This document shows positions 19,770-56,055 of a stretch of 64,000 nt of DNA, one piece after another. The first letter of the stretch is position 1. Each line of letters starts with the position of its first letter. The notes under the pieces are model-generated. The model was given only the letters and a program-made list of their open reading frames with translations, searched no databases and was not told where the DNA came from. Source of the stretch: Minisyncoccota bacterium. Its GTDB lineage: Bacteria; Patescibacteriota; Minisyncoccia; Phycocordibacterales; UBA5272. The stretch covers positions 19,268 to 83,267 of the forward strand of contig JAGOQU010000003.1 in the NCBI GenBank assembly GCA_018063165.1, given 5' to 3'. Both the position numbers and the translations under genes were made by a program.

Positions 19770-20441
19770 TTAATGATCGTGATCAGTGTGTTTGTGTTTA
19801 ATATGAAAATGTATTTCGAGGTATATTATCCATATAACAATAGATGCAAGTGAAGAGATGCTAGCAATTTCAAGTGCTTGAAATTGATCATGATCTATTT
19901 TTTTACCAAGTATATATACAAACATTGCAGCAACAGGAGACCCTATTTGTGCGGTAATACCATAGATAATTGTTTTGTTAATAGAAAGCCCAAGACTTCT
20001 AAAAAGAGTAATTGTTCCTAGTATCTTTGGTAACTCATGCATAATAATACCAACAGTAGCAGCATAACCAAGAATTGGGTTCATGAGATACGTTGCTCCA
20101 ATTACTGCACCGTCAATAAGTGAATGAAAAGCTTCACTAATAACAATACCTTTCGCTCCATCTATTTTAGAATTATGTGTATGCGTGTGAGAGAAATGTG
20201 AAAGAATAAAAAATGTTACACCGGCTGTACATAAGCTAATAAAAAGATCAATAAGGGTAAGTTCACTGCCATGTTCTTTAAAGGTGCTATATATCGAAAA
20301 AGAAAGTAAAAGTATACCAATACTTAAAAATATGCTTTTCCATATTCCTTTAAATAAATTACGTCGCAATAGTAGTGCGATAACAGCTAGAATAGGTAGT
20401 GCGCTAGCACTTAGTATCATAAGAATAAAAGTTGAGTTCAT
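19770..20441 (-). CDS. ZIP-family divalent metal (zinc) transporter, ZupT-like
   Basis: HELPKILGTITLF (cf. the HELPQELGDF ZIP signature), HSLIDGAVIGA, and a His-rich C-terminal tail HFHIKHKHTDHDH. Confidence 0.65.
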   Translation of the reverse strand: MNSTFILMILSASALPILAVIALLLRRNLFKGIWKSIFLSIGILLLSFSIYSTFKEHGSELTLIDLFISLCTAGVTFFILSHFSHTHTHNSKIDGAKGIVISEAFHSLIDGAVIGATYLMNPILGYAATVGIIMHELPKILGTITLFRSLGLSINKTIIYGITAQIGSPVAAMFVYILGKKIDHDQFQALEIASISSLASIVIWIIYLEIHFHIKHKHTDHDH

Positions 20442-20479
20442 AGATATATACCGTATACTATACTCCTTGGTATGTGTCT

Positions 20480-20496
20480 ATGCAAGTTATTTGCAT
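20480..20496. promoter_or_regulatory. perfect dyad ATGCAA-gttat-TTGCAT in the divergent ZIP / Fur-family intergenic region (candidate metalloregulator operator)
   Basis: Seen directly. 6-5-6 inverted repeat within the 97-bp divergent promoter region. A near-identical dyad recurs at 53290..53306. Confidence 0.5.
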
Positions 20497-20538
20497 TATG
20501 TATAGACGTTTTTTTGATGATATGATACTATAAAATAT

Positions 20539-20987: not shown

Positions 20988-21446
20988 ATGATACGTATTA
21001 ATATGAAAGCACCAGAATTTTCATTGCCTGATCAGGAGGGTGTTGTTAGATCTCTTTCTGAGTATCGTGGTAAAAAAATAGTACTATATTTTTACCCTAA
21101 AGATAATACACCGGGATGTACTACAGAAGCGTGCTCTTTTAGAGATGTGTATGAAACTTTGCAAAAAGCTGGAGTAATTATTTTAGGTATAAGCAAGGAT
21201 TCTGTTAAGAGTCATGCAAAATTTGCACAAGCGTATACCTTACCATTTCCTATTCTCTCTGATGTGGATACATCTGTGTGTCAAAAATATGGAGTATGGA
21301 GACTTAAAAAATTTATGGGAAAAGAATATATGGGAATTGCAAGAATAAGTTTTTTAATTGATGAAGAGGGGAAGATTATTAAAATATACGAAACTGTAAA
21401 GCCAGACACTCACACTCAAGATGTTTTAAAAGATGTTGTGAAATAA
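20988..21446 (+). CDS. bcp: peroxiredoxin Bcp (PrxQ-type thiol peroxidase)
   Basis: FYPKDNTPGCTTEACSFRD peroxidatic/resolving Cys motif. 152 aa. Confidence 0.9.
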   Translation: MIRINMKAPEFSLPDQEGVVRSLSEYRGKKIVLYFYPKDNTPGCTTEACSFRDVYETLQKAGVIILGISKDSVKSHAKFAQAYTLPFPILSDVDTSVCQKYGVWRLKKFMGKEYMGIARISFLIDEEGKIIKIYETVKPDTHTQDVLKDVVK

Positions 21447-24045: not shown

Positions 24046-24879
24046 ATGCATGAAGAAACAAGCGTAGCACATGAAGGGTCAATACTTCATGTATACGAAG
24101 AAATCCCTACCATACAATCACCAATTATTGGTGATATTGGTCTTTTTACTATAGCAACATCAACAATTACTGTGATGTTTATAACTTTACTTTTTGTTTT
24201 TTTAGCTATTAAAGTTTCTAAATCAAAACGTATTCCTGGAAAGTTTCAACATCTTATGGAAATGTTTTATGAGGTGGTAACTTCTTTTATTACCTCAATT
24301 GTTGGTACCAAAGAAAAAGCAAAAGTCATTGTTCCGTATGTTGGAGCTATTCTTACGTATCTTCTTGTTGCAAATCTTTTGCCTATGTTTCCTGGAGTAA
24401 GTGGTTTATATGTTGTGATAAATGGGGAACATGTACCGCTTCTTCGTGGTGCTACTACAGATTTTAATACAACGTTTGGTCTAGCTCTTGCTGTTGTTGT
24501 AACTATGCAAATTGTTGGCATGAAAGAACAAGGTGTTTTTGGTTATCTTTCACATTTTATTCAAATTAAACAAGTTATTAAAGGGTTCAAAAAAAGTTTA
24601 GGCGAGGGAGCTGTTTCAATTGTTGGTTTTCTTGTTGGCCTTATTGAAATTATTGGTGAATTAGCTAAGATACTTTCCCTCTCACTTCGTCTTTTTGGAA
24701 ATATGTTTGCTCATGAAGTTCTTACAGTTATTTTGCTTGGTGCGTTTTCTATAGCCGTTCCAGCTATATGGATGGGGATGGGTTTTCTCGTTGGTGTTGT
24801 TCAGTCAGTTGTTTTTGTTGCTCTTACAACGGTGTACTATTCTTTGGTACTCAAAAAAGAAGGTAAAGACGCACACTAA
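24046..24879 (+). CDS. atpB: F0F1 ATP synthase subunit a
   Basis: LSLRLFGNMFAHE motif with the essential Arg. Polytopic, 277 aa. Confidence 0.9.
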   Translation: MHEETSVAHEGSILHVYEEIPTIQSPIIGDIGLFTIATSTITVMFITLLFVFLAIKVSKSKRIPGKFQHLMEMFYEVVTSFITSIVGTKEKAKVIVPYVGAILTYLLVANLLPMFPGVSGLYVVINGEHVPLLRGATTDFNTTFGLALAVVVTMQIVGMKEQGVFGYLSHFIQIKQVIKGFKKSLGEGAVSIVGFLVGLIEIIGELAKILSLSLRLFGNMFAHEVLTVILLGAFSIAVPAIWMGMGFLVGVVQSVVFVALTTVYYSLVLKKEGKDAH

Positions 24880-52348: not shown

Positions 52349-52432
52349 TTTTTTTAAAAAAGAGTAACTACTATAGTTACTCTTTTGTTGTATTGCTACA
52401 TGTTCTCTATATATAGTATGCTTATGTACATC

Positions 52433-52999
52433 ATGAAGAAAAATATTAAGAATAAGCAGTCAGAAATTTTACAAAAAGGTGGTTCCATAAAAACAGAAGC
52501 AGTAAAAAAAATAGTTAAAAAAACTATGAAGGTTGGTGGTGTTTTACATAAAGAAGCTCAAAAGTTACCTGATCACCATTTTAAAATAGTAAAAGTTAAA
52601 CGTGGTTTGGCGGGTCTTGGTCTTTTTGCTGGAGAATCTATTAAAAAAGGTGAGGTTATTATTGAGTACATTGGTAATATTTTAAATAAAGAGGAAGCAG
52701 ATAAGGTTGGGACAAATCAATATCTTTTTGAGGTGAATAGAAATAAAACAATAGATGGTTCTGTTAGATGGAATGTAGCTCGCTATTGTAATCATGCATG
52801 TGAAGAAGCTGCAAATGCTGAAAGTGAAATAAAAAAAGGAAGAGTGTTTGTTAAAGCAATAAAAGATATTAATAACGGTGAAGAAATTGTTTATGATTAT
52901 GGAGAAGAATTCGTTAATGAATATATTGCACCTAAAGGGTGTAGATGTATAGCAAAAGAACATAGTTATAACGCAAGAGTGATGCCAACGGTTGCATAG
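52433..52999 (+). CDS. SET-domain protein lysine methyltransferase (bacterial SET), Lys-rich N-terminus
   Basis: SET core: GLAGLGLFAGESIKKGEVIIEYIGNI, NHACEEAAN (cf. NHSCxPN), EIVYDYGEEF (ELxxDYG), post-SET Cys (CRCIAKEH). The ORF could begin at 52385/52400, but those overlap the upstream terminator hairpin. Confidence 0.7.
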   Translation: MKKNIKNKQSEILQKGGSIKTEAVKKIVKKTMKVGGVLHKEAQKLPDHHFKIVKVKRGLAGLGLFAGESIKKGEVIIEYIGNILNKEEADKVGTNQYLFEVNRNKTIDGSVRWNVARYCNHACEEAANAESEIKKGRVFVKAIKDINNGEEIVYDYGEEFVNEYIAPKGCRCIAKEHSYNARVMPTVA

Positions 53000-53087: not shown

Positions 53088-53282
53088 AATTACAGAAAAA
53101 TATTTTTATAACTTTATACAATGTATAAAATTTATTTTTATAAAATTTGTAAAAATAAATGTGTATAATTATTTTTTTAACAAAAAGTATATTTTTTATT
53201 TCTTTTTTATTTTTATATGATGTAAGTAGAGTGTGTTTAAAAAATATATTGATATATAAGGATAATATAATGATATATAAAG

Positions 53283-53316
53283 TGCATTTATGCAAGTGCT
53301 TTGCATTTGCATAAAT
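53283..53316. promoter_or_regulatory. nested dyad symmetry element containing ATGCAA-gtgct-TTGCAT (same 6-5-6 dyad as at 20480) within an AT-rich promoter region
   Basis: Seen directly: tgcatttATGCAAgtgctTTGCATttgcataaat. The outer arms atttatgcaa / ttgcataaat are also complementary. Confidence 0.45.
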
Positions 53317-53472
53317 AGAAAAAATAAAAATAAAAGTTATCCACAGAATTAACGTACAAAACTATTGTGTACTGATGTACGAATGTCATACTTAGTATAT
53401 CGAGAGTAATGGTCGCGGTCGTGATCATAAAAATTACAAACACTCTCTGATTTCTATAATAAATATATATTT

Positions 53473-53592
53473 ATGGCAGTAAAAAAAGTTGCTAAGAAAG
53501 CAGTAAAGAAAGTAGCCAAGAAAGCAGTCAAGAAAGTGGCTGTTAAGAAGGTTGCTAAGAAAGCTGTGAAGAAGGTTGCAAAGCGCGCATAG
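53473..53592 (+). CDS. 39-aa lysine/alanine-repeat basic peptide (MAVKKVAKKAVKKVAKKAVKKVAVKKVAKKAVKKVAKRA), histone H1-like/Hc1-like tail-type
   Basis: Clean ORF with TATAAT 16 nt upstream and a hairpin terminator (53613..53650) directly downstream. A (KKVAKKAV)n repeat. Too short for the ORF track. Confidence 0.45.
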   Translation: MAVKKVAKKAVKKVAKKAVKKVAVKKVAKKAVKKVAKRA

Positions 53593-53612
53593 TTAGCTTT
53601 GTTCCTCTTTAA

Positions 53613-53650
53613 AATAAATCACCCACTCCCATGGGTGATTTATTTTTTTA
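53613..53650 (+). terminator. hairpin terminator/attenuator between the K-rich peptide gene and the HMA-membrane gene
   Basis: aaatcacccac-tcccatg-ggtgatttattttttt. Confidence 0.6.
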
Positions 53651-53687
53651 TATCATCTACTCTTATTATCATGTATACTATTTGTAT

Positions 53688-54695
53688 ATGAATCGGTATA
53701 CTTTTTATATTTCAGGAACTCATTGTGAGTCATGTAAATTATTTGTAGAAGATGCTTTAGGTAAAAATGCTTCTGTTACTAATGTGTCAATGGATTTACG
53801 TAATGAAACAGTAACAATAGAAACACAAGAAGAAAAAAATAAAGAACTGTTTGCAGAAGAATTAACAAAACTTCTTCTAGATCGTCCATATACTATTACT
53901 GTACATAAGGTGTATGCAGAAAAATCTAACACGTATGAAACATGTATAGCGCTTCTTTTAGGTTTTAGTTTTACTCTACTCTTTTTTGTTTTTCAGAAAT
54001 ATAATACGATTTCTTTTGGAGATAATAGCGCTTCTATGTTTGTAACAAGTTTTTTTGTAGGTATTGTTGCGTCACTTTCAAGTTGTCTTGCTGTTGTCGG
54101 TGGACTTGTACTTTCTCTCTCTACAACATTAGTAGAAAGTGGTCTACGTACAAAAAAACCTTTTGTTCTTTTTCATATTGGAAGAATAGGAGGGTTTTTA
54201 TTTCTAGGTGGTCTGCTCGGATTTGTTGGGGGTACCCTTGGTGTTAACTATATTATTACTGGTCTTTTAGGTATCTTGGCGTCACTTGTTATGGTTGTGC
54301 TTGGTTTTAGTTTGCTTGGGGTTGGCAAAAGTGTAAGTCTTTCTCTACCTCGTTCTTTCTTTTCCTTTTTAAAAAGTAGTATGGCATCTACTAAGACTCC
54401 TTTTCTTGTTGGCGTTCTTACTTTTTTTCTTCCGTGTGGTTTTACACAATCAATGCAAATCTCTGCGTTATCTAGTGGCTCATTTATCTCTGGCGCACTT
54501 ATAATGTTTTTCTTTTCATTAGGAACTCTTCCAGTACTATCTCTTGTTTCTTTTGGGGCACTTTCTTTTTCAACATCAAGACATGCTACACTATTTTTTA
54601 AAACAGTTGGCGTTGTTGTGGTATCGCTCGGTCTTTTTTCTTTGTTTACTGGACTTGTAGGACTTGGTATTATTAATCCATTATTTAGTATTTAA
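53688..54695 (+). CDS. heavy-metal-associated (HMA) domain fused to DsbD_2/CcdA-like polytopic membrane domain
   Basis: N-terminal YISGTHCESCKLFVEDAL (GMxCxxC-type HMA). Then ~8 TM helices with a conserved FLPCGF Cys. The 53631 ATG overlaps the upstream terminator, so M53688 is preferred. Confidence 0.55.
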   Translation: MNRYTFYISGTHCESCKLFVEDALGKNASVTNVSMDLRNETVTIETQEEKNKELFAEELTKLLLDRPYTITVHKVYAEKSNTYETCIALLLGFSFTLLFFVFQKYNTISFGDNSASMFVTSFFVGIVASLSSCLAVVGGLVLSLSTTLVESGLRTKKPFVLFHIGRIGGFLFLGGLLGFVGGTLGVNYIITGLLGILASLVMVVLGFSLLGVGKSVSLSLPRSFFSFLKSSMASTKTPFLVGVLTFFLPCGFTQSMQISALSSGSFISGALIMFFFSLGTLPVLSLVSFGALSFSTSRHATLFFKTVGVVVVSLGLFSLFTGLVGLGIINPLFSI

Positions 54696-55340: not shown

Positions 55341-55379
55341 ACAGTTCTAGCTCCTTTACTCACGGACAGTGAGAAGAAA

Positions 55380-56000
55380 ATGAGCAAACAGCTCAAGGAG
55401 AAGATAATGAAATACGGCGAACTCACACTCGGACAAGTGGAAGCGATTGTAAACAAGCTCGGCGGTATGGAAGGTGTAAAGCGTTTCTTATCTGGTGAGC
55501 TACCTGTTTCTGCAAAGACAAAGGTCTGGAAGACGTGGAAAACCATTAAGCTCGGCACTGGTCTGAAGTCAGCTGATGACTTCCGCAAGGAGGTTGTGGA
55601 GGCAGGGATGAAGATTGGCGACTGGGCAAATGACATCCTCGGCAAGCCCGCCTTCACGGCGACAACCAGCGAAACGGAAGTTGAACTGGTCGTTGCCTCC
55701 GTGGCTGAACTCGGCTTCAAGGATGGTGCAACTCGCAAAGACATCTACGTTCGTGCCCAAGAGCTCGGACTGGACCTATGCCCACCCGAAGTCGGTCCGC
55801 AACTGCGTTTGCAGTACACGGACCAGCCCAAAGGTGAATGGCTTGTCATTGCGATGGAGCCCATCACTGACTCGGATGGCGACCTCAACCTGTTCCACGT
55901 TGGACACGGTGACGGTGTACGCTGGCTCGACGCTGACTACGGCGACCCTGGCTATTTCTGGCGCGGTGGCGGCCGTTTCGTCTTCCTCCGTCGGAAGTGA
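55380..56000 (+). CDS. unknown protein encoded in a compositionally foreign (about 50% GC) island; probable horizontally acquired cargo gene
   Basis: 206-aa ORF with strong G/C third-position bias (ctcggc, aagctc, gacatc). Other frames and the opposite strand give only low-complexity S/T/P/A ORFs typical of antisense GC-rich DNA. Own promoter, RBS-like gagaag, and terminator. Product not recognised. Confidence 0.6.
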   Translation: MSKQLKEKIMKYGELTLGQVEAIVNKLGGMEGVKRFLSGELPVSAKTKVWKTWKTIKLGTGLKSADDFRKEVVEAGMKIGDWANDILGKPAFTATTSETEVELVVASVAELGFKDGATRKDIYVRAQELGLDLCPPEVGPQLRLQYTDQPKGEWLVIAMEPITDSDGDLNLFHVGHGDGVRWLDADYGDPGYFWRGGGRFVFLRRK

Positions 56001-56022
56001 TGTTGGTAAAATGACTGTATCC

Positions 56023-56055
56023 AAAGGGTTCGCGTAAGCGAACCCTTTTTCTTTT
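56023..56055 (+). terminator. rho-independent terminator after the GC-rich gene
   Basis: aaagggttcgc-gtaa-gcgaaccctttttctttt. Confidence 0.7.

Follow-up and report, generated by a model that had tools for sequence, protein, structure and literature searches.

The window, by which we mean the whole stretch of 64,000 nucleotides that was analyzed, has a G+C content of 34% and holds a divergent gene pair, in which a ZIP-like membrane protein on the minus strand and a Fur-family regulator on the plus strand are separated by a gap of 97 bp, as the earlier note on this DNA had described (Table 1). A gene for a thiol peroxidase, bcp, starts 20 nt past the regulator gene, with no terminator in the gap between them, and the two are probably co-transcribed. 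By a database protein of 100% identity and its NCBI name, the window falls in a Candidatus Pacebacteria/Paceibacterota (CPR) genome. The gap between the divergent genes contains site 1, and farther along the window a matching site 2 lies within a conserved block, ahead of an HMA/DsbD_2 gene.

Table 1. Positions of the features discussed in the window, and genes adjoining the same box at other loci
Feature	Position or loci	Strand	Remarks
ZIP-like membrane protein, 223 aa, presumed regulated metal importer	19770-20441	-	profile-profile match
Putative promoter of the ZIP-like gene	20457-20485	-	-35-like TTGCAT (20485 to 20480), 17-nt spacer, -10 TATAGT (20462 to 20457)
Site 1 box, TGCAAGT-T-ATTTGCA	20481-20495	.	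17-bp dyad (20480-20496) adds one W base per side
Putative promoter of the regulator gene	20503-20531	+	-35-like TAGACG (20503-20508), extended -10 TGaTACTAT (20523-20531)
Fur-family regulator, 142 aa	20539-20967	+	PF01475, E 1.6e-19
Bcp/PrxQ-type thiol peroxidase	20988-21446	+	PF00578, E 3e-41; NF006960, 176 bits
Conserved 407-bp block	53243-53650	+	AT-rich promoter-like stretch, site 2, leader of ~165 nt, small ORF, terminator
Site 2 box, TGCAAGT-G-CTTTGCA	53291-53305	.	20.8 bits
39-aa Lys/Ala/Val-rich ORF (MAVKKVAKKAVKK...; in full, MAVKKVAKKAVKKVAKKAVKKVAVKKVAKKAVKKVAKRA)	53473-53592	+	first ORF past site 2
Intrinsic-terminator-like hairpin followed by a T run	53611-53646	+	between the small ORF and the HMA/DsbD_2 gene
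HMA/DsbD_2 gene	53688-54695	+	start (not 53631) taken from a 335-aa protein, 100% identical
Window-type ZIP-like gene, divergent from regulator	45 loci
Canonical ZIP adjoining box	L010, L014, L030, L038, L050		ZIP also in L051, L054, L056
ZnuA adjoining box	L062, L067
COG0523 (cobW + CobW_C) adjoining box	L025, L051, L055
Nicotianamine synthase (NAS) adjoining box	L049, L054, L060
ArsP_1-type permease adjoining box	L051, L055
CbiA/ParA-like P-loop NTPase, 277-304 aa, adjoining box	at least 9 loci

The protein encoded on the minus strand had been called a ZIP-family importer, a name that holds in part. On its own, the protein draws no match from Pfam or NCBIfam, and with 26-33 bits, relatives that share 41-43% identity stay below the PF02535 gathering cut-off of 35.1. 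When the family profile was compared with that of canonical PF02535 ZIPs, hhalign gave a probability of 94.5% (E 8e-8), with an alignment that spans the metal-site motifs HSxxDG of TM4 and HE/HD of TM5, and the corresponding residues of the family (H106, S107, D110 and G111 in H106-S-x-x-D110-G, and H135-E136) are invariant. A profile search of the PDB matched BbZIP (5TSA) over the same region at a non-significant E of 0.19, and canonical ZIPs hold the same genomic position at the five loci listed in Table 1. The profile-profile match and the motifs justify the term ZIP-like, but not full Pfam membership.

The two inverted repeats were found where they had been reported, with site 1 reading ATGCAAgttatTTGCAT and site 2 reading ATGCAAgtgctTTGCAT (53290-53306), and the flanking bases common to both extend the shared sequence to tATGCAAGTnnTTTGCATt. 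The 64 kb hold two exact copies of ATGCAA-N5-TTGCAT, where dinucleotide-preserving shuffles predict 0.01, and none of the shuffles (0/100) contained two or more. With up to two mismatches allowed, the window holds 7 dyads against 6.7 expected, so that significance is limited to the two exact copies. Scored with a weight matrix derived from orthologous sites (training-set median, 21.3 bits), site 1 reaches 22.7 bits, and sites of at least 20 bits are expected by chance at 0.013 per 64 kb. Two weaker box-like 19-mers, 137 bp apart at 24367-24385 (15.2 bits) and 24504-24522 (16.7 bits), lie inside an ATP-synthase-a-like gene (24046-24879); sites of at least 15 bits are expected 0.18 times per window, and this pair may represent chance or weak intragenic sites.

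Conservation of the box was followed by scanning one genome per species, which gave 67 loci with relatives of the regulator (704 kb in total), 64 of them in Patescibacterial MAGs, at 30-75% identity, and the remaining three (L064-L066) in the form of non-Patescibacterial homologues. The core of the motif, TGCRA-N5-TYGCA, occurs 88 times in this DNA, against 4.2 expected, and for its strict 7-1-7 form the count is 47, with 0.2 expected. Of the 88 core copies, 62 are found in the 200 nt that precede the regulator gene, with 47 at -70 to -40, and the 6 kb downstream of it are free of the core at all 67 loci. The box is kept with regulator orthologues of 30-82% identity, at one locus (L039) with a mismatch, and is absent from the three homologues outside Patescibacteria; more distant boxes precede an operon in which the regulator gene comes last (as in L051, L053, L054 and L056). 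Copies above the chance level are all intergenic, at 12-110 nt from start codons; the promoter elements beside them are putative ones, read from the conserved TGnTAnnAT and TAGAC motifs. Patescibacterial DNA from elsewhere, taken as a control (466 kb), gave no match of 14 bits or more. At eight loci (L011, L012, L026, L027, L047, L058, L060 and L067), boxes are paired at distances of 27-62 bp, an arrangement that has been described for some Zur promoters (PMC6103462). The earlier note had proposed a metalloregulator operator, to be judged by the frequency of the motif in coding regions and by its presence in orthologous promoters. Both checks come out in favor of function: intragenic core copies number 3-4 across the 67 loci, against 4.2 by chance, with nearly all others at promoters, and the orthologous regulator gene is preceded by a box within 200 nt at 54/67 loci and within 1 kb at 60/67. 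The recurrence of the dyad at metal-uptake promoters and its near absence from coding DNA thus support the proposal.

In its architecture the box departs from what had been suggested, namely a 6-5-6 dyad unlike the classical 7-1-7 boxes. Among the 62 regulator-proximal sites, position 6 is R in 61, T7 and A9 are each present in 46, and Y10 in 53; 22 independent sites at other promoters carry T7 in 20 cases, A9 in 19 and Y10 in all 22. Positions 6, 7, 9 and 10 are each conserved at about 73%, against a background of 33%, the central base alone varies freely, the flanks of the 62 sites show no conservation, and the outermost A/T of the originally described hexamers reduces to W. As all but one of the five "spacer" bases (R, T, N, A, Y) are conserved, the motif is a 15-bp 7-1-7 palindrome, TGCRART-N-AYTYGCA, with the consensus TGCAAAT-N-ATTTGCA. 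The 6-5-6 reading arose from counting perfectly matched arms only, as the two arms of site 1 differ at position 6 (G in one, A in the other). Two heptamers around one base with an A/T-rich center, as found at the 62 and the 22 sites, are what defines a Fur-family operator; 7-1-7 is the classical minimal layout of such sites, and the Zur and Fur boxes in the literature, palindromes of 7-1-7 or 9-1-9, frequently lie over the -35 element (PMC5007448; PMC6103462).

The position of site 1 relative to the two divergent promoters suggests how it could act. On the minus strand, the putative -10 element TATAGT lies 15 nt before the ATG of the ZIP-like gene, and the -35-like TTGCAT coincides with the left half-site of the box plus one flanking base, so that site 1 would overlap this hexamer. 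A consensus promoter scanner did not list the ZIP-like promoter, TTGCAT matching TTGACA at 3/6 bases. On the plus strand, the box would sit upstream of the -35-like element of the regulator gene in the window, and not on it. Orthologues with the spacing of the window have a TAGACn element, also -35-like, 5-7 nt after the box. The -10 element of the regulator gene stops 7 nt before its ATG in the window, and in the corresponding DNA of L001-L063 an extended -10, TGnTAnnAT, is likewise followed at 7-10 nt by the start codon; Shine-Dalgarno sequences are missing both there and in the window. An extended -10 at this distance implies a leaderless mRNA; leaderless transcripts throughout the clade appear to be the case for the regulator gene, and are probable for the ZIP-like gene.

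Site 2 is set in different surroundings. The block that holds it is 97% identical to its counterpart in L148/L149, where flanking coding DNA is 78-90% identical, and the stretch 53377-53528 shows no change at all relative to the relative; an exact-sequence look-up brought up no more than two variants of this region. In the sole known relative, site 2 is retained as TGCAAGTGCCTTGCA, with a T10 to C substitution. Owing to a tandem duplication of TTGCAT at 53288-53314, site 2 overlaps a hairpin with a 12-bp stem, TTATGCAAGTGC-ttt-GCATTTGCATAA, and the leader (53288-53475) folds with a z of -4.5 against shuffled sequences. The 39-aa ORF is called as a gene in the relatives and is preceded by a TATAAT of its own; a protein search with a 40-residue query found no homologues at E <=0.001. 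No Rfam family reached its gathering threshold across the window, and the stretch 53200-53700 gave one chance-level match at E <=1. No convincing promoter geometry was found at site 2, and a gene or promoter on the minus strand was rejected for lack of an ORF and because the relative does not keep the -10 candidate.

The second dyad had been placed upstream of an HMA/DsbD_2 metal cluster, of which the dyad itself is real and the assignment is not borne out. The small ORF and the terminator-like hairpin intervene, and around 80 loci with HMA/DsbD_2 homologues (466 kb) there is no site of 14 bits or more. In L150, the orthologue is found within a copper operon, csoR-copA. In view of the box-free loci and the copper context, HMA/DsbD_2 was rejected as a general target of the box, and the gene is probably outside the system.

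What remains for site 2 is a choice between two readings, of which the one we favor is that it is probably a second box of the regulator, which would gate the conserved transcript with its long leader and 39-aa Lys-rich ORF. As an alternative, the sequence may be the 5' arm of a hairpin belonging to the leader and small-gene unit, with a coincidental match to the box, which we regard as possible but not likely. The predicted 12-bp stem and the z of the leader fold are in keeping with the hairpin, as are the location of the relative's single substitution in its loop and the distance of 167 nt from the box to the nearest ATG, that of the small ORF, unlike at all other sites; moreover, because the whole 407-bp block is conserved, conservation of the box at site 2 is uninformative by itself. 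Against coincidence stand the score of site 2, in a range expected at 0.013 per 64 kb, the fact that T10 to C is also permitted by the box matrix, and the regulator-proximal boxes in L011 and L025, which share the ATGCT-type spacer of site 2.

The genes that adjoin boxes elsewhere (Table 1) give the box its biological context. This set matches published Zur regulons (PMC6103462), and targets of the Zur type are thus found across the loci, within the window itself in the ZIP-like gene only. CbiA/ParA/MinD-like NTPases are among the most frequent box-controlled genes in the clade, often with a box or two of their own, and are not present in the window (examples are L011:4218-5054, L015:4295-5209, L023:2672-3505, L040:4379-5212, L048:5093-5965, L051:5041-5889, L052:4359-5192 and L053:5126-5980); they may be a metallochaperone analogue of COG0523. 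A box also precedes pairs of small ORFs (106-117 and 113-116 aa) at L020:3598-4270 and L027:4449-5116, which have no Pfam or NCBIfam match and, as calls from a crude ORF finder, are possibly not real genes.

Taken together, we interpret site 1 as the operator of the adjacent Fur-family regulator, acting as a Zur-like repressor of zinc uptake, and give this statement as a whole a probability of roughly 75%. That site 1 is the operator of this regulator is, as a part of it, very likely; the adjacent protein had been named as a possible binder, and it is now the best candidate, since the box travels with the regulator gene. Zinc as the signal is likely as well, and is drawn from the regulon alone because the protein keeps no canonical ligand set and falls into no one subfamily. 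A metal-bound dimer of the regulator would occupy the 15-bp palindrome, whose left half-site coincides with the -35-like hexamer of the importer and whose other end stops 8 bp short of the putative -35 of the regulator gene. With a half-site on one -35 and the box close to the other, the bound dimer would bar RNA polymerase from one or both of the divergent promoters, i.e. those of the importer and of the leaderless regulator-bcp transcript. Under metal shortage, the apo-protein would leave the operator, and importer and regulator would be expressed. Site 2 would, by the same switch, control its leader and small ORF rather than HMA/DsbD_2.

The regulator itself is predicted to adopt a Fur-family fold (AlphaFold, pLDDT 85), and carries a structural Cys4 site (C96, C99, C138 and C141) that is invariant in 31 relatives, as are H23, H78, H80, H82, E84 and E86. 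Its best PDB matches are PerR and Fur, its NCBIfam scores are 54 (PerR), 47.5 (Zur) and 46 bits (Fur), all far below the curated cut-offs, and NCBIfam, PDB sequence search and Foldseek do not separate the subfamilies for this protein. The canonical regulatory-site ligands of Streptomyces coelicolor Zur, D65, C79, H84 and H86, align with R72, L85, V90 and Y92, so that none is kept in the window protein, and the family consensus keeps H92 alone. In the window, the regulator has Y92 and Q130 where nearly all of 30 relatives have His at both positions, which looks like the paired loss of a would-be secondary metal site.

The same operator and regulator could respond to another metal, Fe or Mn, as Fur or Mur do, which is decidedly unlikely. 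This reading draws on the fact that sequence and fold do not separate the subfamilies, on the occurrence of Mn and Fe carriers among ZIP- and ZnuA-family transporters in some organisms, and on the sensing region, which offers H23, H78, H80, H82, E84 and E86 and no Cys. A His/Glu-rich, Cys-free sensing region resembles Fur and Mur more than the Cys-containing sites of Zur. In comparison with the Fur box, the one found here has equal length and symmetry, and five of seven half-site positions (T1, G2, A5, A6 and T7) are identical to those of the minimal 7-1-7 unit TGATAAT-N-ATTATCA, in the form in which PMC5007448 cites it from Baichoo and Helmann; positions 3-4, in contrast, are CA or CG here and AT in Fur. 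Against iron, no iron gene (feo, siderophore, ferritin or Fe-S) lies beside any of the 88 boxes, and COG0523, nicotianamine synthase and ZnuA, which do adjoin boxes, are hallmark Zur targets (PMC6103462).

Peroxide sensing is a further candidate for the function of the protein, with a PerR-type box that would control bcp together with metal import, and we hold it to be very unlikely. PerR provides the top PDB and NCBIfam matches, and the thiol peroxidase gene follows the regulator gene at 37/67 loci. In B. subtilis, PerR controls zosA and fur, and the PerR box is TTATAAT-N-ATTATAA. The two systems are alike in their 7-1-7 layout, in regulator-peroxidase linkage and in autoregulation, which is putative here. 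However, half-site positions 2-4 differ, and the PerR sensing ligands H37, D85, H91, H93 and D104 align with H23, H78, V90, Y92 and K104, so that one identical ligand is kept. Apart from bcp after the regulator gene, none of the 88 boxes has a peroxide-defense gene (catalase, ahpC or dps) beside it, and the box-associated genes elsewhere serve zinc acquisition.

Orthology to the nickel regulator Nur was raised by the shared TGCAA/TTGCA arms. The box of S. coelicolor Nur, tTGCaa-N5-ttGCAA, is bound by a Fur-family protein, has a 6-5-6 layout and has five central bases that are reported as non-conserved (PMC2691836). It is the sole earlier description of a 6-5-6 reading, and its outer arms, TGCAA...TTGCA, are identical to those here, where four of the five central bases are conserved. 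The Ni-site (His70, His72 and His126) and M-site (His33, His86, His88 and His90) of Nur are not reproduced in the window protein: hhalign to 3EYY places R73 and D75 opposite H70 and H72, and R89, S91 and T93 opposite H86, H88 and H90, H33 being the only ligand kept (as H23). There is also no nickel or SOD gene among the targets of the box, and Nur orthology was ruled out on ligand residues and targets. That the box is bound by some other, unlinked transcription factor and only happens to adjoin a Fur-family gene is extremely improbable, for although palindromes of this size fit many dimeric regulators, the box keeps a fixed distance from that gene across orthologues of 30-82% identity, stays while the neighbor varies (ZIP-like, canonical ZIP, NAS, ZnuA or the NTPase operon), and has the 7-1-7 layout of the Fur family with an AAT-N-ATT center.

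Zur-like repression of zinc uptake stays our preferred reading. In a more far-reaching one, the regulator senses its metal in a non-canonical manner, by the wing-hairpin ladder H78-x-H80-x-H82-x-E84-x-E86 together with H23 and without the ligand sets of Zur, Fur, PerR or Nur, and also gates the site 2 leader RNA and 39-aa peptide; this joint proposal is speculative, and we consider it unlikely as a whole.

Among known systems, the Zur boxes of Bacillus and Actinobacteria (7-1-7 or 9-1-9, e.g. TAAATCGTAATNATTACGATTTA) are alike in having a 15-bp 7-1-7 unit with an AAT-N-ATT center, in their position at promoters, often over the -35, in their ZIP/ZnuA and COG0523 targets, and in a regulator encoded beside its target. 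Differences lie in the half-site, where TGCAAAT here departs from TCGTAAT of Zur at positions 2-4, in a window regulator without the canonical Zur regulatory ligands, and in the host, an uncultured CPR lineage with putative leaderless transcripts. The box is most likely a lineage-specific version of a well-known bacterial metal switch, and the general picture of Fur-family regulation is unchanged by it. The searchable literature yielded no account of this box, and none of Zur in Parcubacteria/Patescibacteria. Almost nothing is known of gene regulation in CPR/Patescibacteria because these organisms are uncultured, and the present analysis of sequence offers a well supported candidate regulator-operator pair and a putative small regulon for one of the few CPR transcription factors, which comprises ZIP-like and ZIP importers, ZnuA, COG0523, nicotianamine synthase, an ArsP-type permease and the CbiA-like NTPase. 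With the 15-mer, metal-starvation genes could be annotated across thousands of MAGs, and the leader RNA and 39-aa peptide at site 2, if under control of the box, would be a previously unseen part of the CPR response to metal starvation.

Two further features were noted in the neighborhood of site 2. Just upstream, at 52385-52999, lies a gene for a SET-domain protein (PF00856, E 3e-23), which the relative also has; bacteria seldom encode such proteins, and this one has no connection with the box. Downstream, a GC island at 55350-56050 includes a 206-aa ORF (55380-56000); given a G+C of up to 59% in a genome of 34%, and no counterpart of the ORF in the syntenic relative L148, it is probably a foreign insertion.
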